64,000 nt of DNA, from positions 6,870-70,869 of the forward strand of contig CAYXSX010000001.1 in assembly GCA_964467925.1 (NCBI GenBank), given 5' to 3'. Both the position numbers and the translations under genes were made by a program. The notes beneath the pieces were generated by a model. It was not told where the DNA came from and did not search any database. It saw nothing but the letters and a program-made list of their open reading frames with translations. Numbering within the stretch: position 1 is the first letter of the stretch; the number at the start of each line of letters is the position of its first letter. This stretch comes from an uncultured Pseudobdellovibrionaceae bacterium (GTDB taxonomy: Bacteria; Pseudomonadota; Alphaproteobacteria; Micavibrionales; Micavibrionaceae). Positions 4,483-63,083 of this stretch are shown here, in pieces.

Positions 4483-5361
4483 ATGCCCGCTTTTGCCTAT
4501 GTTAACGGTCGTTACGTTCATCATCGCGATGCCGCCGTGCATATCGAGGACCGCGGTTTTCAATTCGCCGACAGCGTGTATGAGGTCATTGCCTGTATAA
4601 ATGGTACTTTGGCCGATGCGCCCGGACATCTCGACCGGATGGAACGCTCGCTCGGTGAATTGGCAATGGGCATGCCCTGTTCGCGCAAGGCATTGCTGCT
4701 GATCATCCGCAACTTGCTTCGTAAAAACAGGCTTTCCAGCGCCGCCGTGTATATTCAGGTCACGAGAGGGAGCGCCAAGCGCGATTTCAAATTTCCCTCT
4801 GCGGATACGCCGCAAACGCTTGTGATCACAACGCGCCCCTTTAATTTTGCACAAAACCCCTATATCGAAAAGGGAGCCAAGGCGATTACCGTGCCCGACT
4901 TACGCTGGGCGAGGCGCGACATCAAAACCACCGGGCTTTTGCCTCAGGCTCTTGCGAAACAGGCGGCCGCCGAGAAAGGCGCCCAGGAAGCCCTGATGAT
5001 TGATGAGGACGGCTATATCACCGAAGGATCCTCCAGCAATTCATGGATTTTAAAGGATAAGACCTTGTATACCCGCAACGCCGATCACATGATCCTGAAG
5101 GGGGTGACGCGCATGGCGGTCAACCATGTGGCGCAAAAAATGGGCCTTACAATAACCGAGCGCAAATTCAAACCCGAAGAAGCGCTAGAGGCCGATGAAG
5201 CCTTTAACACCAGCGCAACCGCCATGATCATGCCTATCGTGGAAATCGACGGCAAAAAGCTTGGCACGGGCAAGCCCGGCCCCGTGACACAGAAGATTTT
5301 CGAAGAATATAAAAACTATGTCTTCGGAAAATACGGCTCCCCGCTTACATGGAAATACTGA
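4483..5361 (+). CDS. Class IV aminotransferase (D-amino-acid / branched-chain family)
   Basis: 292 aa. The N-terminus (GFQFADSVYEV) and the DIKTTGLL and EGSSSN segments are typical of fold-type IV PLP enzymes. Confidence 0.8.
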   Translation: MPAFAYVNGRYVHHRDAAVHIEDRGFQFADSVYEVIACINGTLADAPGHLDRMERSLGELAMGMPCSRKALLLIIRNLLRKNRLSSAAVYIQVTRGSAKRDFKFPSADTPQTLVITTRPFNFAQNPYIEKGAKAITVPDLRWARRDIKTTGLLPQALAKQAAAEKGAQEALMIDEDGYITEGSSSNSWILKDKTLYTRNADHMILKGVTRMAVNHVAQKMGLTITERKFKPEEALEADEAFNTSATAMIMPIVEIDGKKLGTGKPGPVTQKIFEEYKNYVFGKYGSPLTWKY

Positions 5362-5365
5362 TCTG

Positions 5366-6034
5366 ATGAATTTGCCCGCAAGACTTCCCGAAACCATGAT
5401 TTTCGACTGGGACGGCACGCTGGCCGACAGTTTCGTATTCCTCAACCTCGCGCATAACCATGTACGCGATGTGTTCGGCATGGATCCCATGACGCACGAA
5501 GAGTTTAAATATTATTTCGGCAAGCCGCGCGAGGTGCTTTACAAGGTCATGTATGAAAGTCGCGCGGAAGAGGCCAAAACCCATTTTGAATCCTACGTGG
5601 TGGCCAATCATCACAAGCTCGAGCCCTTGGAGGGGGCGGGGGCACTGCTCCAGAGCCTGCACGAGGCTGGCGTGGTGATGAGTGTGGTGACCAATAAACG
5701 CAGCAAATTCGTAACCGCCGAGATCGAAAACATGGGCTGGGACGGGTATTTCGCTTCGGTCGTCGGGGCGGGTGAGGCCAAAGCCGACAAACCCGATACC
5801 GCGCCCTTACTGCTTGCGTTGGAAAAGGGCGGAATAGTTAATAATCCGGCCCATACATGGTTTATCGGTGATACCGATATCGACCTTCTTTGCGCCCGCG
5901 CCTTCGGCTGCCATGCCGTTTTAATCGGCGAAACGCCCGAAAGACAATCATGGATTGAGGATTATAACCCCATGATGGCGTTCAAAACCTTACCCGAATT
6001 TCATAAAGAAATATTACAAATAGCGGCAAAATAA
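5366..6034 (+). CDS. HAD-superfamily hydrolase (phosphoglycolate-phosphatase-like)
   Basis: HAD motif I at FDWDGTLADS, motif II at VVTNK, motif III at GDTDIDL. Start moved to ATG 5366 to clear the upstream stop at 5361. Confidence 0.75.
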   Translation: MNLPARLPETMIFDWDGTLADSFVFLNLAHNHVRDVFGMDPMTHEEFKYYFGKPREVLYKVMYESRAEEAKTHFESYVVANHHKLEPLEGAGALLQSLHEAGVVMSVVTNKRSKFVTAEIENMGWDGYFASVVGAGEAKADKPDTAPLLLALEKGGIVNNPAHTWFIGDTDIDLLCARAFGCHAVLIGETPERQSWIEDYNPMMAFKTLPEFHKEILQIAAK

Positions 6035-6042
6035 GTAAAAAT

Positions 6043-6058
6043 TGGCTTGCCGCCTGCC
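6043..6058 (+). promoter_or_regulatory. Candidate sigma-54 type -24/-12 element (TGGCTTGCCGCCTGC)
   Basis: GG (6044-6045) and GC (6056-6057) have the canonical 12-nt register; the element lies 66 nt upstream of the hfq ATG. Pattern match only. Confidence 0.25.
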
Positions 6059-6123
6059 GTTTTCTTGTTTAAGAAGCTGTAAAAAGCCTGCGTAATGCAG
6101 AAAAACAATAATTGGACATAAAA

Positions 6124-6384
6124 ATGGCAGATAAAATCCAAAACGTACAAGACGTGTTTCTGAATAAAATCCGCAAGGAAAAGATGTCGGTCACCGTCTT
6201 TCTCGTGAACGGGGTAAAACTTCAGGGTGTTATTACATGGTTCGATAATTTCAGCATGTTGCTGAGACGTGATTCACACGTACAGCTGATTTACAAGCAC
6301 GCCATCTCGACAATCATGCCGGGCGGCCCGCTTAGTCTGAATGACGAAGAAGACACCGAGAAAAAGGCCGACACAGACGCCTAG
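6124..6384 (+). CDS. hfq: RNA chaperone Hfq
   Basis: Sm motifs [39 protein letters not shown] and YKHAISTI. hflX lies immediately downstream. Confidence 0.95.
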
Positions 6385-6397
6385 CCGCAAAGACCAT

Positions 6398-7711
6398 ATG
6401 TTTATCAATTATAACCATCCCGCGCATAAAAAGCGGGACAGGGCACTTATCATTCACCCTGAGCTTCCCTCCCGCCCGCAAAGCCGGGATATGGAAGATA
6501 TTCTGGAAGAAGCCGAAGGGCTGGCCCATGCGATCGAGCTTGACGTTGCACACACGGAAACTTTGAAAGTTTCCGCCATTCAGGCCGGTGCCTTTTTCGG
6601 CAAGGGGCAGCGTGAGAAAGTCGCCGGAATTATAGAGGAAACCGATCCCGACATCGTTATCGTCAACAGCACGCTTTCGCCCGTGCAGCAACGTAACCTC
6701 GAAAAAGAATGGAACCGCAAGGTTATCGACCGTACCGGACTGATCCTCGAGATTTTCGGCGCCCGCGCTCAAACGAAAGAGGGGCGGCTTCAGGTCGATC
6801 TGGCCGCTCTGGAATATCAACGCTCCCGCCTCGTGCGCTCATGGACGCACCTTGAGCGTCAGCGCGGCGGGGCAGGGTTCATGGGCGGGCCCGGCGAGCG
6901 GCAGATCGAGCTCGACCGCCGCATCATAGACCAAAAAATCGTCCAGCTTAAAAAGGAACTGGAGCAGGTGATGCGCACGCGCCGCCTTGGCCGTCAGAAC
7001 CGCGAACGCGTGCCTTATCCCGTGATCGCGCTTGTCGGCTATACCAACGCGGGGAAATCCACGTTGTTCAATACCATTACCGATGCCGGAGTGTTTGCCG
7101 AAGACCTGCCTTTTGCCACGCTCGACCCCACCTTGCGCAAGATCACACTCTCCAATAATCAGGAAGCTATTTTGTCCGATACGGTGGGATTTATCTCCGA
7201 CCTGCCTACCCATCTTGTTGCCGCCTTCCGCGCCACGCTGGAACAAACGGTTCACAGCGACGTTCTTGTCCATGTCATCGACGTTTCGCGTCATGACTGG
7301 CAATCCCAGCGCGAGGACGTCATCCGCATCCTTCAGGACCTTGGCATCGAATATGAGCGCGATAACCGTATTATCGAGGCATATAACAAAATCGATGCCC
7401 TGCCGCCCGAAGAACGCGAAAGACTGAGCCATAAATTCCATGGCCGTGACGACGTTATTCTACTTTCCGCGCTAAAGGAGGAGGGGCTCGACAGGCTGGA
7501 TGAAAGCTGTATCGATATCCTCGCCGCCCGTCATGTGGATGTGAGCCTCACGCTACCCTATGCCGACGGGCGCTCGCTCGGCTGGCTATACGATCATGCA
7601 GATATTTTGAAGCGTGAGGACGGCGAAGAGGGGATCAAACTTTCCTTTCGCATCGATCCCGGAATGCTGGAAAAGTTCAAACAGGAAACTGGGTATAAGG
7701 TTAAACCTTAA
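6398..7711 (+). CDS. hflX: GTPase HflX
   Basis: G1 GYTNAGKST, G3 DTVGF, G4 NKID. Start set to ATG 6398, just after the hfq stop. Confidence 0.9.
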   Translation: MFINYNHPAHKKRDRALIIHPELPSRPQSRDMEDILEEAEGLAHAIELDVAHTETLKVSAIQAGAFFGKGQREKVAGIIEETDPDIVIVNSTLSPVQQRNLEKEWNRKVIDRTGLILEIFGARAQTKEGRLQVDLAALEYQRSRLVRSWTHLERQRGGAGFMGGPGERQIELDRRIIDQKIVQLKKELEQVMRTRRLGRQNRERVPYPVIALVGYTNAGKSTLFNTITDAGVFAEDLPFATLDPTLRKITLSNNQEAILSDTVGFISDLPTHLVAAFRATLEQTVHSDVLVHVIDVSRHDWQSQREDVIRILQDLGIEYERDNRIIEAYNKIDALPPEERERLSHKFHGRDDVILLSALKEEGLDRLDESCIDILAARHVDVSLTLPYADGRSLGWLYDHADILKREDGEEGIKLSFRIDPGMLEKFKQETGYKVKP

Positions 7712-8499
7712 GCGGCACGTTCTTTAGCTTTTTGCTCTTGCCATGCGGCTTCCATTTCCTCCAATGAAGCGTCCTTAATATCTTCACCTTTTACTTTAAA
7801 AATACCCTCTAAACCCTTAAACCTTCTTTCAAATTTATCATTTGTGTTTCGCAGTGCCGTTTCAGCATTTATATCGAACTGACGCGCCAGTCCGGCGACC
7901 ACGAACAGCACATCGCCCAGTTCTTCCGCCTTTTCTTCTATCGTACCTGAGGCGACAGCTTCGCGCAGTTCGGCCAGTTCCTCTTCCAGTTTATTCAAAA
8001 AACCATCAATGGATTGCCATTCAAACCCCACCTTGGCCGCCTTTTTTTGCAATTTCTGCGCCCGGAGCAGGGCGGGCAGGGCCTTGGCCACACCGTCAAG
8101 CGCACTGGCGCTTTCCGGCTTTTCCAGCGCTTTTTTCTCGTCCCAGATCGCGTTAACGTCCTCTGCGCTCCCCGCCGCGCGGTCGCCAAACACATGCGGG
8201 TGGCGGGAAATCATCTTTTCGGTGACGTCCTTGATCACATCTTCGATAGTGAAAAACCCTTCTTCCGATGCCATTTGAGCATGATAAATCGGCTGGAGGA
8301 GGAGATCGCCAAGCTCCTCACGCAAATCTTTCATATCGCTACGCTCGATAGCATCTAGGACCTCATAGGCTTCCTCAACCGTATAGGGGGCGATGGATTG
8401 AAAATCCTGCCCCAGATCCCACGGGCAGCCGCCTTCCGGATCACGTAACCGCGCCATGACTTTGATTAACTCTTCGATAGGGTGTTTTTGCTCGCTCAT
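7708..8499 (-). CDS. mazG: Nucleoside triphosphate pyrophosphohydrolase MazG
   Basis: Tandem MazG domains with EExxExxD-type motifs (EEAYEVLDAIE, EELGDLLLQ, EELGDVLFV). Confidence 0.9.
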   Translation of the reverse strand: MSEQKHPIEELIKVMARLRDPEGGCPWDLGQDFQSIAPYTVEEAYEVLDAIERSDMKDLREELGDLLLQPIYHAQMASEEGFFTIEDVIKDVTEKMISRHPHVFGDRAAGSAEDVNAIWDEKKALEKPESASALDGVAKALPALLRAQKLQKKAAKVGFEWQSIDGFLNKLEEELAELREAVASGTIEEKAEELGDVLFVVAGLARQFDINAETALRNTNDKFERRFKGLEGIFKVKGEDIKDASLEEMEAAWQEQKAKERAA

Positions 8500-8508
8500 T
8501 TTTTTCCC

Positions 8509-9954
8509 TTATCTACGCCAGTATTCCGACCGGAATAATACCAGCACCGTCATCATTTCCAAACGCCCGAAAAGCATTGCTGCGCATAACAGCCATTTCG
8601 CCGTATCGGGCAGTGAGGCAAAATTTCCAGATGGCCCTATGATATTCCCTATACCCGGCCCGACATTGGCAAGCGCGGTGGCCGATGCACTGATCGCGGT
8701 TTCAAAATCAAGGCCGAGCAGGCTCAGGGCAATAGCCAGCACCGCCGCAGAAATGGCAAAAACTCCTAGAAAACCCAGAACCGCGATTGCCATATTTGAA
8801 TCAATAGGCCGTCCCTGATAATGCAGGGTAAAAACACCGTGGGGGAAGAGCAAGGTTTTAATCTGACGCTGCGCCAGTTTAAGGGCAATCACCAGCCGCA
8901 TAACCTTCATTCCGCCAGCGGTAGAGCCCGAACACGCCCCCAAGAAGGTCAGGAAGAATATAAACGTCGCCGCAAATCCGCCCCATAACGTATAATCCGT
9001 CGTAGCAAAGCCGGTGGTGGTGATAATCGAAATCACGTTAAAAACTACGTAGCGCAGACTTTCCTCTACGCTGTAGGCTGAATTCAGCCATAGCCAACTG
9101 GTGAGAACAACGAAAAAACAAACCAGCATCACCAGAAGTGATCTGAATTGCTCATCCTTGAAAAACTCAAATTTTCCCTGAAAAAAGAACTTGATATAAA
9201 GCACGAAGGGAATACCGCCGCATAGCATGAAAAATGCTCCGGCATAGTGCAGGGCAGGCTCTTTGAAAAACCCGAAAGAGGCGTCATGCGTTGAGTATCC
9301 GCCGGTAGGGATGGTGGTTAGAGCATGATTGATCGCATCAAAAATATTCATACCCAGCACAAAAAATGTTGCAGCGCACGCAGCCGTCAAAATGGCGTAA
9401 ACCTTGAGCAGTGAAGCAACAAGATCGACTGTCCTTGGCATCACTTTTTCCGATTTATCCGATGATTCCGTGCGGAAAAGCTGCATCCCGCCAATGCGCA
9501 GAAAGGGCAGAATGACGATGGCAAAGGCGATAATTCCTATCCCGCCGATCCACTGCGTAATCGAGCGCCAAAGCAAAATCCCGCGTGACATGCCGTCCAA
9601 CCCGCTAAGAACCGTAGATCCTGTCGTGGTAACACCTGAAACGGACTCAAAAAATGCGTCCGTAAAAGAAAGATCGAGATCGGAGAAATAAAACGGAAAG
9701 GCGGCGAATACGCTCATCGCGAGCCAGCTCAGCACGGTGAGCATAAAGGTCTGGCGTAGATCCAGATTGTTATCATGCGCGTAATTTGAAAGTATTAACG
9801 CTCCGCCGAAGAACAGTGAAACAAGAGCACATTCCACAAATGCGGCAGAATTCATATGATCGTCGCTCATATCGACCAGCGCCGGTATAAATTCGGCCAC
9901 GCCGATAATCACAAGTAATATCCCGATCGTAAAACCGACGATTTGATGTTTCAA
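8509..9954 (-). CDS. trkH: Trk potassium uptake system membrane subunit TrkH
   Basis: 481 aa polytopic membrane protein with repeated selectivity-filter-like segments (TTTGF, GGYS, GVTTTGS). Confidence 0.9.
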   Translation of the reverse strand: MKHQIVGFTIGILLVIIGVAEFIPALVDMSDDHMNSAAFVECALVSLFFGGALILSNYAHDNNLDLRQTFMLTVLSWLAMSVFAAFPFYFSDLDLSFTDAFFESVSGVTTTGSTVLSGLDGMSRGILLWRSITQWIGGIGIIAFAIVILPFLRIGGMQLFRTESSDKSEKVMPRTVDLVASLLKVYAILTAACAATFFVLGMNIFDAINHALTTIPTGGYSTHDASFGFFKEPALHYAGAFFMLCGGIPFVLYIKFFFQGKFEFFKDEQFRSLLVMLVCFFVVLTSWLWLNSAYSVEESLRYVVFNVISIITTTGFATTDYTLWGGFAATFIFFLTFLGACSGSTAGGMKVMRLVIALKLAQRQIKTLLFPHGVFTLHYQGRPIDSNMAIAVLGFLGVFAISAAVLAIALSLLGLDFETAISASATALANVGPGIGNIIGPSGNFASLPDTAKWLLCAAMLFGRLEMMTVLVLFRSEYWRR

Positions 9955-19345: not shown

Positions 19346-19435
19346 GGAGGGGTGGCAGAGCGGTTGAATGCACCGGTCTTGAAAACCGGCGTGGGTTTAC
19401 GCCCACCGTGGGTTCGAATCCCACCCCCTCCGCCA
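19346..19435 (+). tRNA. tRNA-Ser: tRNA-Ser (anticodon UGA), CCA encoded
   Basis: Acceptor stem GGAGGGG/CCCCTCC. Anticodon stem CCGGT/ACCGG with loop CTTGAAA. Long variable arm (class II). T-arm GGGTTCGAATCCC. Confidence 0.95.
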
Positions 19436-25176: not shown

Positions 25177-25217
25177 GCCCCTCACTAGGTGAGAAAAGAA
25201 TTTAAGGAGAATATATT

Positions 25218-28299: not shown

Positions 28300-30966
28300 A
28301 TGAGAACCGACACACCCAAAACAATTTATCTGAAAGATTACAAACCTTATCCCTTCGCTATCGGGCATCTGGATTTAACGTTCCAGATTCACGACGGCCA
28401 TACGGATGTATCCGCGCGCAGCGCCATTCGTAAAACCGATCAGACGGCAACGGAAATTTTCCTCAACGGTGAAGATTTGGAGCTTCTTTCCATCGAGATA
28501 GATGGTCGGGAGATCAACGATTACCGCCGTGACGAACACGGACTTTACATCCCCTGCCCGGCGGAAGGCTTTACTCTGGAGATCAAAACCCGCATCAAGC
28601 CGGAGGAAAATACGCGCCTCGAAGGTCTGTATAAGTCCGGGGATACTTACTGTACACAATGCGAAGCCGAAGGGTTCCGGCGGATTACATTTTATCCCGA
28701 CCGCCCCGATGTGATGACCACATTCACTACGCGCATAGAGGCGGACAAAAAATTTCCCGTACTTCTGGGCAACGGCAACCGTGTGGATGGCGGAGAGCTG
28801 GAAAACGGGCGTCATTACACAATCTGGGAAGATCCCTGGCCCAAACCCTGCTACCTGTTCGCGCTGGTGGCCGGAGACCTCACCCATATTCACGATACGT
28901 ACAAAACCGCATCAGACCGTCTGGTCGATCTGTATATTTTCGTACGGCCCGGAGATGAAAGCCAGTGCGCCCACGCGATGGAATCGCTCAAAAAATCCAT
29001 GAAGTGGGACGAGGACACATACGGGCTGGTTTACGACCTTGACGTATTCAATATTGTCGCGGTCAGTGACTTCAACATGGGGGCGATGGAAAATAAGTCG
29101 CTCAACATTTTCAACACCGCTCTTGTATTGGCGCATCAAGACACCGCTACGGATCAAGATTTTATGCGCGTGGAAAGCGTGATCGCGCATGAATATTTCC
29201 ACAACTGGAGCGGTAACCGCGTGACCTGCCGCGACTGGTTCCAGCTTTCACTCAAAGAGGGTCTAACCGTTTTCCGCGATCAGGAATTCTCAAGCGATAT
29301 GAATTCCCGCGCCGTGCAACGCATCGACGACGTGCAGCATTTGCGCAAATTACAATTTGCCGAGGATGCCGGGCCGCTCGCCCATCCCATCCGCCCGGAC
29401 AATTATATCGAGATCAATAATTTCTATACCATGACGGTGTACGAGAAAGGCGCCGAAGTCATCCGCATGTTCCGCACCCTGATGGGGCCGGAAAAATACC
29501 GCAAGGCGACCGATCTTTATTTCTCCCGCCATGACGGCCATGCGGCAACCTGCGAAGACTGGATTAAATGCATGGAAGAGGCTTCCGGCTTTGATTTCAG
29601 CCAGTTTCGCCTGTGGTACAGCCAGGCTGGCACGCCCGAGGTCACATTCAAAGGCGTACACGACATTAAGAACGGCGTATACAGCATTGAACTTTCACAA
29701 AAAAATCCCGATACACCCGGTCAGAAGGACAAGAAGCCCATGCACATTCCCGTGGCCATCGGCCTTGTGGATGAACATGGGGAAGACGTTGTGGAAGATG
29801 TGCTTCATCTAACTGAAGAAAAACAGGAATTTAAATTCGAAAACATATCCACAAAGGTGGTGCCGTCGGTGTTACGGAATTTCTCGGCTCCGGTGAAGCT
29901 CCGTACGTCTCTTGAAAATGCGGAATTGTCGTTTTTGATGCTGCATGACAAAGACGGATTTAATCGCTGGGAAGCCGGGCAGCAATTATATTTGCACATG
30001 CTGAATAACATGATTGATTCCTCCCCCTCTCGTCATCCTGAAGGGTCGAAGACCCTGAAGGATCTTCCCTCAACCGAACGAGATTCTTCAGCGCAAGCGC
30101 TTCAGGATGACATGTATAAATTCATGGAGACGATCGGCAAATTGATCGAACAGGGCATGGAGGCTGAAACCGATAAGGCGTTGCTCGCCCGCTCCCTCAC
30201 CCCGCCCGATATCGCCGCGATCGGTCAGAGCCGGGACGAAGTCGATCCCGATGCGATTTACAAGGCACGCCAAAGCTTGCTCGCCGCGATTAAACGCGAA
30301 CACCGCAAGGCACTCGATAAATTATATACCTCGTGCGAAGATAAGGGCGACTTCAGTATTACGCCGGAAGCCATGGGTGCCCGGGCGCTGCGCGCCGCCC
30401 TGCTTCGCATTTTGACCGCCACGCACGGCACTGGTTGTGCCAAGCTTTCCAAAGCGCATTATGATAGCGCGGATAACATGACCGACCGTATCGCGGCGCT
30501 TTCCGTACTGACCGACATCAACCAGCCGCAGCGTGAAGAGGCTTTCGATGATTTTTATGGACGGTATAAAAACTACCCACTGGTTGTAGATAAGTATTTC
30601 TCGTTGCAGGCTGTAGCAGTGCGTTCAGACATCATAGAATGCCTTAACAAACTCAAACATCATCCTGATTTTAATATCAAAAACCCAAACCGTGTGCGCT
30701 CGCTATACGCCGCTTTTGCCATGAACAACCTAGTCGGTTTCCATGCTGTGGACGGATCGGGGTATAAGTTTTTGGGCGATGCGATTGTAGAGCTCAATTC
30801 TATCAACCCACAGATTGCCGCGCGGCTGCTTACCCCTCTTCGCGAATGGCGCCGCTATACGTCGGATCGCCGCGAAAAGATGCAGGCCACGCTGGAACGC
30901 ATTCTTGAAACACCGAATCTTAGTCCCGATGTCTTTGAAATCGCCAGCAAAAGCCTTAAATCCTGA
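28300..30966 (+). CDS. pepN: Aminopeptidase N (M1 family)
   Basis: GAMEN and HEYFHNWSGNRVT...LKEG zinc motifs; 888 aa. Carries an in-frame palindromic insert at 30031-30111. Confidence 0.95.
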   Translation: MRTDTPKTIYLKDYKPYPFAIGHLDLTFQIHDGHTDVSARSAIRKTDQTATEIFLNGEDLELLSIEIDGREINDYRRDEHGLYIPCPAEGFTLEIKTRIKPEENTRLEGLYKSGDTYCTQCEAEGFRRITFYPDRPDVMTTFTTRIEADKKFPVLLGNGNRVDGGELENGRHYTIWEDPWPKPCYLFALVAGDLTHIHDTYKTASDRLVDLYIFVRPGDESQCAHAMESLKKSMKWDEDTYGLVYDLDVFNIVAVSDFNMGAMENKSLNIFNTALVLAHQDTATDQDFMRVESVIAHEYFHNWSGNRVTCRDWFQLSLKEGLTVFRDQEFSSDMNSRAVQRIDDVQHLRKLQFAEDAGPLAHPIRPDNYIEINNFYTMTVYEKGAEVIRMFRTLMGPEKYRKATDLYFSRHDGHAATCEDWIKCMEEASGFDFSQFRLWYSQAGTPEVTFKGVHDIKNGVYSIELSQKNPDTPGQKDKKPMHIPVAIGLVDEHGEDVVEDVLHLTEEKQEFKFENISTKVVPSVLRNFSAPVKLRTSLENAELSFLMLHDKDGFNRWEAGQQLYLHMLNNMIDSSPSRHPEGSKTLKDLPSTERDSSAQALQDDMYKFMETIGKLIEQGMEAETDKALLARSLTPPDIAAIGQSRDEVDPDAIYKARQSLLAAIKREHRKALDKLYTSCEDKGDFSITPEAMGARALRAALLRILTATHGTGCAKLSKAHYDSADNMTDRIAALSVLTDINQPQREEAFDDFYGRYKNYPLVVDKYFSLQAVAVRSDIIECLNKLKHHPDFNIKNPNRVRSLYAAFAMNNLVGFHAVDGSGYKFLGDAIVELNSINPQIAARLLTPLREWRRYTSDRREKMQATLERILETPNLSPDVFEIASKSLKS
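30031..30111. repeat. Palindromic MITE/REP-like element, type 1 (GTCATCCTGAAG ends), inside pepN
   Basis: Perfect 12-bp terminal inverted repeats. Inner inverted repeat TGAAGGATCT/AGATTCTTCA. By eye, about three-quarters identical to the reverse complement of 47011-47089. Confidence 0.8.
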
Positions 30967-31654
30967 TTTTTCGCTAGAGGAGGAACTCGGCGTTCCCGTT
31001 TGCGGCATAGACGAGGTCGGGCGCGGGCCGCTAGCCGGGCCGGTTGTCGCCGCGTGCGTTTTCATTCCACCGGAGGTGCGCAAGTCGGAATGGGTCGCCC
31101 ATATCCGCGACAGTAAAAAGCTTTCCGAAAAGAAGCTGGAAATGTTATTCGAGGCCATCACCGCACATTGCGTCTACGGTATTGCCGAAATCGCTCCGCA
31201 AGAGATCGACAGGATCAATATTTTACAGGCGGCCTTAAAAGCGATGAGCTTTTCTTTCTCATCATTCCTGCGCATGCAGGAATCCATTTCAATCAACTCA
31301 CCAAGCTCATCCATGGATCCCGGCCTTCGCCGGGATGACATTGTGGCTTTAGTCGATGGAAACCGCTGTCCTGAATTACCCTGCCGAAGCATGGCCGTCG
31401 TTAAAGGCGACGGCAAATCGAAATCCATCGCCGCGGCCTCAATTATCGCCAAGGTCACCCGCGACCGGATCATGCGAAAATTAGCGACAGAATTCCCACA
31501 TTACGGCTGGGAAAGCAATGTTGGCTATCCGTCAAAGGCACACCGGGACGCCATTCTCATCCACGGTATTACGCCCCACCACCGCCGTTCTTTTGCTCCG
31601 GTGAAAAATTTTTTAACGGAACAGCCTCGAGTCGAAACCCTGACTCAGCCTTAG
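30929..31654 (+). CDS. rnhB: Ribonuclease HII
   Basis: GIDEVGRGPLAGPVV, DSKKLS, VDGNRCP, KGDGKS and HRRSFAPV motifs. Start uncertain (ATG 30929 overlaps the pepN end). Carries an in-frame palindromic insert. Confidence 0.9.
   Translation: MSLKSPAKALNPDFSLEEELGVPVCGIDEVGRGPLAGPVVAACVFIPPEVRKSEWVAHIRDSKKLSEKKLEMLFEAITAHCVYGIAEIAPQEIDRINILQAALKAMSFSFSSFLRMQESISINSPSSSMDPGLRRDDIVALVDGNRCPELPCRSMAVVKGDGKSKSIAAASIIAKVTRDRIMRKLATEFPHYGWESNVGYPSKAHRDAILIHGITPHHRRSFAPVKNFLTEQPRVETLTQP
31261..31339. repeat. Palindromic MITE/REP-like element, type 3 (TCATTCCTGCG...CGCCGGGATGAC), inside rnhB
   Basis: Hairpins CCTGCGCATGCAGG and CCCGGCCTTCGCCGGG near the ends. Inner inverted repeat GGAATCCAT/ATGGATCC. 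Same architecture as 32874-32990. Confidence 0.7.
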
Positions 31655-32873: not shown

Positions 32874-32990
32874 GTCCCCGCGAAAGCGGGGATTATACTG
32901 CCGGAATCCAGAAAAGACAGCCAGCGAAGCTGGCTGACACGTGGATCCCGTTCGTGTAAGTTCTGCTTCGCAGAACACCAACGGGATGAC
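32874..32990. repeat. Palindromic element, type 3, long variant
   Basis: Ends GTCCCCGCGAAAGCGGGGAT ... CAACGGGATGAC. Inner GGAATCCA/GTGGATCC. Extra central hairpin CAGCCAGCGAAGCTGGCTG. Confidence 0.65.
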
Positions 32991-33001
32991 GAAGGAGTAT
33001 T

Positions 33002-44203: not shown

Positions 44204-44287
44204 CGTCATTGCGAGGAGCGCCAGCGACGCGGCAATCTAGGATGACGCTTGTATCAGAAGATTGCTTCGCTTACGCTCGCAATGACG
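44204..44287. repeat. Palindromic MITE/REP-like element, type 2 (CGTCATTGCGAG ends)
   Basis: Perfect 12-bp terminal inverted repeats CGTCATTGCGAG/CTCGCAATGACG. Inner GCAATC/GATTGC. Homologous to 61378-61469. Confidence 0.8.
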
Positions 44288-45580: not shown

Positions 45581-45587
45581 CAAACAT

Positions 45588-45703
45588 GTCATCCTGAGTG
45601 GAGCGACCCCGGACTTTGATCCGGGGGAGCGCAATCGAAGGATCTCATAAAACCGTAAGGAGATCCTTCGACTTCGGCACTCCGTGCCTGCGCTCAGGAT
45701 AAC
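45588..45703. repeat. Palindromic element, type 1 long variant (GTCATCCTGAG ... CTCAGGATAAC)
   Basis: Imperfect terminal inverted repeats. Arm hairpins CCCCGGACTTTGATCCGGGG and GGCACTCCGTGCC. Central inverted repeat CGAAGGATCTC/GAGATCCTTCG. Confidence 0.75.
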
Positions 45704-45747
45704 ATTGTTAGGTTGCTTATGCCTAAGCGGGATGCAAATATGATCCG

Positions 45748-46998: not shown

Positions 46999-47010
46999 TT
47001 TTCTTTAGCT

Positions 47011-47089
47011 GTCATCCTGAAGCGCTTGCGCTGAAGGATCTCAAGCGATTGAAACTAGATCCTTCAGGGCTAAAGCCCTTCAGGATGAC
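47011..47089. repeat. Palindromic MITE/REP-like element, type 1
   Basis: Perfect 12-bp ends GTCATCCTGAAG/CTTCAGGATGAC. Inner TGAAGGATCT/AGATCCTTCA. Inverted orientation relative to the pepN copy. Confidence 0.85.
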
Positions 47090-47142
47090 AACAATCAAAA
47101 AAACCCGTTCCCCAAAGCGGCAAACCCTGCTCTAATACCCCT

Positions 47143-61377: not shown

Positions 61378-61469
61378 CGTCATTGCGAGGCCTGTTAAGG
61401 CCGAAGCAATCTAGGGATACAAACGCTATTTCTGGATTGCTTCGTCGGCTTCGCCTCCTCGCAATGACG
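61378..61469. repeat. Palindromic MITE/REP-like element, type 2
   Basis: Ends CGTCATTGCGAGG/CCTCGCAATGACG. Inner AAGCAATC/GATTGCTT. Lies between convergent genes. Confidence 0.85.
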
Positions 61470-62861: not shown

Positions 62862-62889
62862 GATATGTGCCGCCCCTTTGCGAAGAAAG

Positions 62890-63083
62890 AGTGCCGCGAA
62901 GCCGTGTAGAGTGGTATCCGCGTGAAGCCCGGTAATACCAGGTGGGTGCCGTATACTTCAGAAATCCACCGCACAATCCCCGCTAGGGGCAGCATTGGGA
63001 TATTCAAAGCAGGGACAGATCCCTAATGCGAATGCATCGGCCTCCGGGATAAAGTTTCTATCACGAACTTCGCAGCAAGGGTG
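62890..63083 (-). ncRNA. ssrS: Putative 6S RNA (boundaries approximate)
   Basis: 247-bp ORF-free spacer between zapA and the cyclo-ligase gene (the classical zapA-ssrS-ygfA synteny). The 5' segment GCUGCGAAGUUCGUG can pair with the 3' segment CACGGCUUCGCGGC as a closing stem. TATAGT/TATAAG -10-like hexamers at 63084-63096. Confidence 0.6.

Follow-up and report, generated by a model that had tools for sequence, protein, structure and literature searches.

An in-frame palindromic insert in pepN

The stretch of DNA studied here, 64 kb of contig CAYXSX010000001.1 from an uncultured Pseudobdellovibrionaceae bacterium (hereafter, the window), contains pepN, the gene for aminopeptidase N, as a single open reading frame (ORF) on the + strand (28300..30966) that encodes an 888-aa protein. 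With the NCBIfam equivalog model pepN_proteo, the ORF reaches 1194 bits (cutoff 718), and the encoded PepN matches E. coli PepN structures with E = 1e-253. The gene order obg-proB-pepN-rnhB-ccrM is conserved in relatives, and pepN is colinear with its orthologues on both sides of an 81-nt insert at 30031-30111, which leaves the frame and the ORF intact.

The DNA sequence of the insert is CGTCATCCTGAAGGGTCGAAGACCCTGAAGGATCTTCCCTCAACCGAACGAGATTCTTCAGCGCAAGCGCTTCAGGATGAC. It amounts to 27 codons (residues 578-604, peptide RHPEGSKTLKDLPSTERDSSAQALQDD), contains neither a stop codon nor a frameshift, and ends in perfect 12-bp terminal inverted repeats, GTCATCCTGAAG at 30032-30043 and CTTCAGGATGAC at 30100-30111. 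Together with the flanking tag bases, the element occupies 30031-30112 (C + 80 nt + A). The first-pass annotation of the window had described a stop-free, in-frame 81-nt segment of pepN with perfect 12-bp ends, and the sequence, ORF and inverted-repeat analyses agree with that description. It had also pointed to a second copy in reverse orientation at 47011-47089; this copy is indeed present and is 85% complementary to the insert over 60 nt.

With up to one mismatch allowed, the terminal 12-mer occurs five times in the window (0.18 expected), and none of 100 shuffles reached this count. RNA folding gave -39.3 kcal/mol for the pepN copy (z = -5.4 relative to shuffled sequence) and -49.2 kcal/mol for the intergenic copy at 47011-47089 (z = -8.6). 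A covariance model, R1, was built from 20 copies of the repeat, which we call family A. It picks out only two elements of the window at high score: the pepN copy (30031..30112; 85.1 bits, E = 3.9e-20) and the intergenic copy (47010..47090, + strand, canonical orientation; 97.6 bits, E = 1.9e-23), which lies between rsfS and rlmH and starts 11 nt past the rsfS stop codon. Canonical orientation, with the CGCTTGCG hairpin first, puts the pepN copy on the - strand; pepN, being transcribed from the + strand, thus reads the element in the opposite direction.

The window PepN was searched against 5.8 billion proteins, among which it was itself returned once (P0001), and 28 PepN sequences, the window's included, were aligned. 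It is closest to P0002, a protein of 863 aa with 85% identity, and to the partial sequence P0020 (86%); beyond them stand hundreds of ~864-aa orthologues with 63-73% identity, some of which carry the names Micavibrio, Alphaproteobacteria or Rhodospirillales. None of the 27 other aligned sequences has an insert at the site. Since the nearest relatives do not have it, the insert is DNA that was acquired and no part of the ancestral protein, in line with the first-pass annotation.

As can be seen from the DNA of the two nearest relatives (L001 and L002), the site is empty there, but its boundaries are not clean. Both relatives read GAT-GAAGGCAGCAAGGATGTCTGTCCG-AAATTC, where the window reads GAT-TCCTCCCCCTCT-C[80 nt]A-TGTAT-AAATTC, with TGTAT at 30113-30117. 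Relative to them, the window has gained a net 75 nt and not 81, the flanking loop sequence also differs, and eight ancestral codons (EGSKDVCP) are swapped for 33 in the window. The tetrapeptide EGSK is encoded by both the pepN element and the ancestral loop, which is probably a coincidence. An insertion guided by homology via EGSK was considered and set aside: the uvrA copy of the repeat (see below) also encodes EGSK, and the motif is a feature of the element subtype. In L002, pepN (6001-8554) is called as two genes, of 683 aa and 162 aa, which may reflect a frameshift or pseudogene or an assembly error.

An AlphaFold2 model of PepN was computed from the 28-sequence alignment. Its mean predicted local distance difference test score (pLDDT) is 74, with most of the C-terminal domain at 80-95. 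Around the insert, the model has a helix at residues 553-573, a coil at 574-590 and a helix at 591-618, and pLDDT falls below 50 at residues 579-587 and 592-594. The first half of the insert is predicted to form a disordered loop, and the second half is modelled, with low confidence, as lengthening the next helix at its N-terminal end. The flanks had been assigned from the sequence to the C-terminal helical domain, and the model concurs: the insert falls in a loop of low confidence that joins helices one and two of that domain. The site aligns with the loop at ~582-592 of E. coli PepN, between the first two helices of domain IV, and this loop differs in length from orthologue to orthologue.

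Anatomy and kinship of family A

One genome for each of 185,579 species was scanned for the two terminal 12-mers at a distance of 45-70 nt, which yielded 30 loci; a metagenome scan with the same ends yielded 26 further loci (L035-L060). These further copies, about 55 with perfect ends, the second copy in the window and the covariance-model matches to both window copies substantiate the earlier claim that the pepN insert is a repeat at the nucleotide level. The 30 genome and 26 metagenome loci have the ends and the inner stem GAAGGATC in common. The layout of family A is GTCATC-CTGAAG-[hairpin 1]-CTGAAG-GATCT-[13-21 variable nt]-AGATC-CTTCAG-[hairpin 2]-CTTCAG-GATGAC, and it is common to copies from metagenome-assembled genomes (MAGs) of Micavibrio and Pseudobdellovibrionaceae and from one alphaproteobacterial MAG. 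Hairpin 1 is mostly CGC-TT-GCG; hairpin 2 occurs as ACC-TAAA-GGT, GGC-TTAA-GCC, GCA-TT-TGC or similar variants. The side hairpins vary in sequence among copies with pairing retained. In hairpin 2, all three pairs have changes on either side, pairing is preserved in 98.8% of cells, and the covariation score was reached by none of 500 shuffles. The outer and inner stems are invariant, the invariance of the outer stem being partly a product of the search pattern.

Among 28 intergenic copies, the element is preceded by T in 25 and by C in 3, and followed by A in 20 and by G in 5. These counts define the true ends of family A as YGTC...GACR, with the GTC of the tag fixed by the search pattern itself. 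The pepN copy has CGTC as its left tag and TGTC (the reverse complement of GACA) as its right one. As single-stranded DNA, each half of the element (TGTCATCCTGAAGCGCTTGCGCTGAAGGATCTC is one half) consists of an unpaired YGTC, a 5-bp stem ATCCT/AGGAT, a 2x2 GA/GA loop, a hairpin of 4-6 bp and a CTN tail. Both halves folded together as DNA form a four-helix junction (-30 kcal/mol, z = -8.5), and every family-A copy is a head-to-head dimer. The element is a head-to-head pair of (C/T)GTC-tagged hairpins of the repetitive extragenic palindromic (REP) type, similar to the REP dimers known as REPINs.

The element is no described Rfam RNA family: no match was obtained at gathering thresholds, and a permissive scan brought up nothing but chance similarities to microRNA hairpins, far below threshold. 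A hammerhead-type or other ribozyme was considered for the multi-helix junction and found no Rfam support. An intrinsic terminator was also rejected, as the elements are not called as terminators and their T-rich flank lies upstream, not downstream, of the hairpin. A literature search with the string GTCATCCTGA returned unrelated primer matches only, and no match was obtained when the 30-residue insert was compared by phmmer with 1.84 billion representative proteins.

Some of the copies outside the window deviate from the common form. The metagenome subfamily (L035-L060, mostly from sample Ga0164241) retains the four-helix layout with longer side hairpins and a length of ~86 nt; in many copies, the inverted repeats are 6 nt longer (aatgatGTCAT...ATGACatcatt). 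The core GTCATCCTGAAG...GAAGGATC...GATCCTTC...CTTCAGGATGAC also occurs as simple, long, isolated hairpins in distant phyla (L003, L009, L013, L023, L026 and L028), the taxa being Desulfurella, Granulicella, Fibrisoma, Chloroflexota and Calditrichota. Five core copies (L004, L007, L017, L031 and L032) lie on one 8.2-Mb metagenome chromosome, OW818698.1.

The first-pass annotation had named the Rickettsia palindromic elements (RPEs) as the precedent for such inserts. The precedent holds, and a closer one is provided by the dimers of CGTC-tagged REPs, a superfamily that includes RPE-4 and RPE-6. In the description of this superfamily (Di Nocera, De Gregorio and Rocco 2013; PMC3733652), the hairpins carry a CGTC tag (variants TGTC and CCTC), their stems begin with complementary A/T, and a 3-nt tail with the consensus CCA follows. 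Four families, CGTC-1 to CGTC-4, with stems of 8-9 bp and loops of 4-5 nt, were defined, mainly in Alphaproteobacteria, Micavibrio aeruginosavorus being named among the hosts. The elements are mostly head-to-head dimers, often hetero-dimers, that are able to fold as a larger hairpin, and sit past the 3' ends of ORFs at a distance of no more than 20 bp. Occasionally, dimers lie inside genes and contribute 20-30 residues to the product, with uvrA/B/C/D, recBCD and truB as notable cases. RPE-6 of R. conorii was equated with CGTC-1 and RPE-4 with CGTC-4. No dedicated transposase was assigned, and the mode of movement was left unresolved (PMC3733652).

Family A shares with these REPs the terminal CGTC/TGTC tag, the dimer layout, the position after ORFs, intragenic inserts of 20-30 residues and, in the scanned ORFs of the window and next to the 30 genome loci, the lack of a transposase. 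An AT...AT stem start is present in all family-A copies (GTC-ATCCT...AGGAT-CT), but the tail, which likewise begins with C, is CTN and not CCA, and the published stem of 8-9 bp with a 4-5 nt loop is replaced by 5 bp, GA/GA and a hairpin of 4-6 bp. The family-A peptides (HPE..., ...LQDD) are missing from the list of intragenic elements in PMC3733652, which reports no intragenic elements for Micavibrio. Family A is thus not one of the four published families; we treat it as a further, arguably new, family of the CGTC-tagged REP superfamily.

Six other palindromic elements accompany the pepN copy in the window, whose genes are otherwise housekeeping ones; in total, there are two in-frame and five intergenic elements. 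Four of the five intergenic ones begin 6-12 nt after a stop codon. Besides the copy between rsfS and rlmH, they comprise a longer A-like variant of 116-118 nt in the proA/nadD spacer (45587..45704), 6 nt past the proA stop, which has family-A outer ends GTCATCCTGAG / CTCAGGATAAC and inner stem GAAGGATCTC / GAGATCCTTC with larger side hairpins and matches R1 partially, in its centre (E = 0.001). Two elements form a family B. One (CGTCATTGCGAG...CTCGCAATGACG) lies in the atpF/proA spacer at 44204..44287, 12 nt past the atpF stop, and gives a full-length R1 match with E = 0.02; the other, with 13-bp perfect arms, lies between convergent genes at 61378..61469, 9 nt and 3 nt from their stops, and matches R1 over its full length with E = 2e-7. 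A direct hairpin scan revealed a single CGTC REP hairpin (CGTC-ATCCCGTTGGTGT...ACACGAACGGGAT-CCA) on the - strand at 32942..32991, downstream of a ccrM-like methyltransferase gene. Rfam matches at gathering threshold in the window are only two, a 6S RNA (62887-63081, - strand; 52.6 bits, with the gathering score at 46.4) and a single tRNA gene (19346-19432, + strand).

In-frame copies in other genes

Four of the 32 perfect genome-derived family-A copies (two in the window and the 30 genome loci) lie in real genes, which were identified by NCBIfam as pepN (the window), ileS (L011), truB (L024) and uvrA (L029). All four share one reading frame of the element, HPEG..LKDL..DPSAQALQDD; the repeated CTGAAG contains a TGA that closes the other frames. 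The lengths of the copies (80 nt in pepN, 77 in ileS, 77 in truB and 83 in uvrA) are all 2 mod 3, and with one tag base each in-gene copy is therefore a multiple of three. The usual intergenic hairpin ACCTTTAGGT would put a TAG in the coding frame, and the in-gene copies have GGGTCGAAGACC-type hairpins. No copy of the metagenome subfamily (L035-L060) was found inside an ORF.

The TruB protein of L024 has an additional segment relative to E. coli TruB. The IleRS of L011 (2-2683, from a Pseudobdellovibrionaceae MAG) contains three separate repeat-derived segments, one of which is the family-A insert. The second, ...ILRFAQDDK..., corresponds to an R1 match at 249-313, and the third, ...PLPIGERG...SPLWGEGRGEG..., to another type of palindromic repeat.

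PepN itself has been entered independently at other positions. In P0118, family A is inserted at residue 166 in the other orientation (DNA L033 2000-2067, R1 E = 2e-16), and P0028 has a family-B peptide at residue 170. REP-derived inserts are found at residues 499-501 of P0037, P0072 and P0113, and P0104 has a further family-A copy at residue 509 (DNA L034 3032-3120). Residues 166-170 were thus struck twice and residues 499-509 four times, and the signatures at the latter differ (HPERSEGS, DPGLRRDD, FPRESGG and an A-like CHP...LQDD), which suggests that both regions are permissive loops or insertion hot spots. In total, REP-derived inserts occur at at least four sites in at least seven of the 28 PepN orthologues, a set enriched for unusually long sequences. 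Across the window and its relatives, the in-frame inserts measure 23-30 residues.

The second in-frame insert of the window lies next door to pepN, in the gene for RNase HII (rnhB, ORF 30815-31654). It is 81 nt long (31260..31340). Its halves, ATTCCTGC-GCAT-GCAGGAAT-CCA and TGTC-ATCCCGGC-GAAG-GCCGGGAT-CCA, are arranged head to head and form 8-bp stems with 4-nt loops and CCA tails. The stem and loop lengths published for CGTC REPs, from which family A departs, are those of this insert, and the CCA tail is present both here and in the singleton at 32942-32991. The insert is read in frame as ...SSFLRMQESISINSPSSSMDPGLRRDD... (the encoded stretch is also given as ...RMQESISINSPSSSMDPGLRRDD...). 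The peptide DPGLRRDD is entered as CGTC-1-encoded in the supplement of PMC3733652, and the rnhB insert is a textbook CGTC-1 dimer. Relative L001 shares it, L002 and L033 have a plain RNase HII loop at this place, and the window RNase HII is ~20 residues longer there than the E. coli enzyme. In L034, the RNase HII gene (4671-5366) carries a family-A element (CHPEAFTLKDLDSSGQALQND, 4984-5045) in the very loop in which the window has its CGTC-1 dimer; two different repeat families have entered this loop of RNase HII in two lineages.

RPEs, studied by Ogata and colleagues in 2000 and 2002, are reportedly palindromic repeats found in frame in many unrelated Rickettsia housekeeping genes, where they encode a conserved peptide. 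The elements described here resemble them in lying in frame in unrelated genes (pepN, rnhB, ileS, truB and uvrA), at sites compatible with the fold, and in occurring between genes as well. In contrast, RPE-1-type elements are longer (about 100-150 bp, against ~80 nt for family A) and reportedly restricted to Rickettsia, and the host in our case, being Micavibrio-like, is no obligate intracellular bacterium. The link of family A to RPEs runs through the equation of RPE-4 and RPE-6 with CGTC families in PMC3733652, and it is a likeness by description, not by consensus alignment.

Origin and significance of the inserts

We consider it likely that a small, non-coding, structured REP-type repeat landed in pepN and survived there. 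Such repeats would spread by an activity supplied in trans and gather just past gene ends. A copy that enters a gene would be kept only if the added length is a multiple of three, if its one stop-free frame (HPE..LKDL..LQDD) is in register with the gene, and if a surface loop tolerates some 27 hydrophilic residues. The encoded peptide is hydrophilic, as suits a loop. Translation would give PepN an additional loop, disordered for the most part, between helices one and two of its C-terminal domain, and the insert is most likely a neutral or slightly deleterious passenger. We infer its translation, its neutrality and its mode of movement; its repeat nature, its absence in relatives, its loop site and the recurrence of the same frame in other genes are direct observations.

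By analogy with REP/RAYT and IS200/IS605 systems, it is plausible that the elements are mobilised in trans by an HUH enzyme to which the tag and hairpin of single-stranded DNA serve as the recognition site; this would also account for the missing target-site duplications. We know of no mobilising enzyme of this hairpin-recognising kind for CGTC REPs. REPINs, which Nunvar and colleagues in 2010 and Bertels and Rainey in 2011 are said to have connected with RAYT (REP-associated tyrosine transposase) enzymes, are likewise non-autonomous, intergenic pairs of inverted REP hairpins with a short spacer and a conserved 5' tetranucleotide, the pair being the unit that replicates. However, the tetranucleotide of REPIN/RAYT systems is GTAG or GTGG, and that of family A is YGTC. 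Moreover, these systems have a single-copy RAYT gene (of the Y1 HUH type) flanked by REPs, and none was found here within the 64-kb window.

Several observations weigh against the origin of the insert from a REP-type repeat. The pepN junctions are untidy: 99 nt in the window stand against 24 nt in the relatives, the 12-nt pyrimidine tract TCCTCCCCCTCT at the left junction (30019-30030) has no counterpart there, and no target-site duplication is seen in the comparison with L001 and L002. Untidy junctions are found in all three comparisons of filled and empty sites, namely pepN, rnhB and the rplU-rpmA spacer of L002; in the last, the filled and empty versions differ untidily though the coding flanks are nearly identical. 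No transposase or Y1 enzyme was detected among ~60 of the 65 long ORFs of the window that were scanned, and when the ORFs within 2 kb of the 30 genome copies were all compared with one another, no protein recurred except in one syntenic glyA region. The placement in the CGTC superfamily rests on the tag, the AT stem start, the dimer organisation and the location, not on identity to a published consensus, and the 12-nt, GA/GA-interrupted arms of family A contrast with the published 8-9 bp stems and 4-5 nt loops. Finally, the AlphaFold model is moderate only, with its mean pLDDT of 74 and a poor catalytic domain. As regards the window ORFs, all identifiable ones among the ~60 scanned are housekeeping, and a few have no Pfam match. 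The filled copy in the rplU-rpmA spacer of L002 is a related element at 2820-2891; the corresponding window spacer (25177-25203) measures only 27 nt.

Part of this evidence would also suit an ordinary miniature inverted-repeat transposable element (MITE), that is, a deletion derivative of an insertion sequence moved by a DDE transposase acting on the 12-bp terminal inverted repeats. MITEs are short, end in inverted repeats and fuse occasionally in frame with host genes; intragenic bacterial examples, among them ERIC, Correia, Coxiella QMITE and Anabaena MITEs, have been reviewed together with occasional in-frame ORF fusions (PMC10969869). The perfect 12-bp ends and the size of ~80 bp of family A fit this description, as do the perfect pairing of the halves with each other, each half alone having the GA/GA mismatch, and the 6-nt extension of the inverted repeats in the metagenome subfamily. 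However, MITEs usually have target-site duplications and a traceable parent insertion sequence. No duplication is present at any junction examined, and neither a parent insertion sequence nor its transposase was found in the window or beside the 30 loci. Since the YGTC tag, the AT stem start, the head-to-head hetero-dimer and the position after stop codons fit the description of REPs, we regard a MITE origin as unlikely.

It is still less probable that the insert has been co-opted, either by giving PepN a new property through the loop or by regulating translation or stability through the strong fold of its mRNA (about -39 kcal/mol). The element has kept its ends perfect and its hairpins intact within the coding region, and REPs have been reported in the literature to influence mRNA stability and translation. 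Yet the nearest relatives do without the insert, which is found in one sequence only, the central stem of the pepN copy already has a mismatch, and the loop is predicted to be disordered. The occurrence of the element family in unrelated proteins and at other PepN sites favours tolerance over a specific function. We give hardly any credence to an artefact, that is, a metagenome misassembly at the repeat or a decaying pepN pseudogene: the window apparently comes from a MAG and exactly this PepN is on record once, but pepN is colinear with its orthologues on both sides of the insert with frame and gene order kept, its full-length ORF scores far above the cutoff of the equivalog model, and comparable in-frame copies are present in independent assemblies.

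The landing of a REP-type repeat in pepN thus remains the preferred explanation, and the filled and empty site pairs in close relatives are material for working out how CGTC-type REPs move, a question to which we found no later literature answer after the 2013 study. The conservation of the core motif (YGTCATCCTGAAG ... GAAGGATC) across phyla may point to a trans-acting enzyme for these "orphan" REPs, which might be encoded among the genes that co-occur with the elements in these genomes. In-frame palindromic repeats outside Rickettsia are already documented (PMC3733652); how widespread in-gene repeats are among Micavibrio-like and Bdellovibrio-like genomes has apparently not been reported so far, and the Micavibrio type genome is described in the literature as lacking mobile elements (PMC3189940). 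More tentatively, Micavibrio-like and Bdellovibrio-like bacteria might be a second, undescribed Rickettsia-like hot spot, in which several REP families, active now or recently, repeatedly colonise the surface loops of core proteins.

The inserts lengthen annotated proteins by 20-30 residues, give rise to spurious peptide families (HPE...LQDD and DPGLRRDD) and may mislead alignments and phylogenies. At the same time, they flag insertion-tolerant loops in PepN, RNase HII, TruB, UvrA and IleRS. As the pepN element shows, selfish palindromic DNA within essential proteins is not peculiar to Rickettsia and is common in a free-living predatory lineage.

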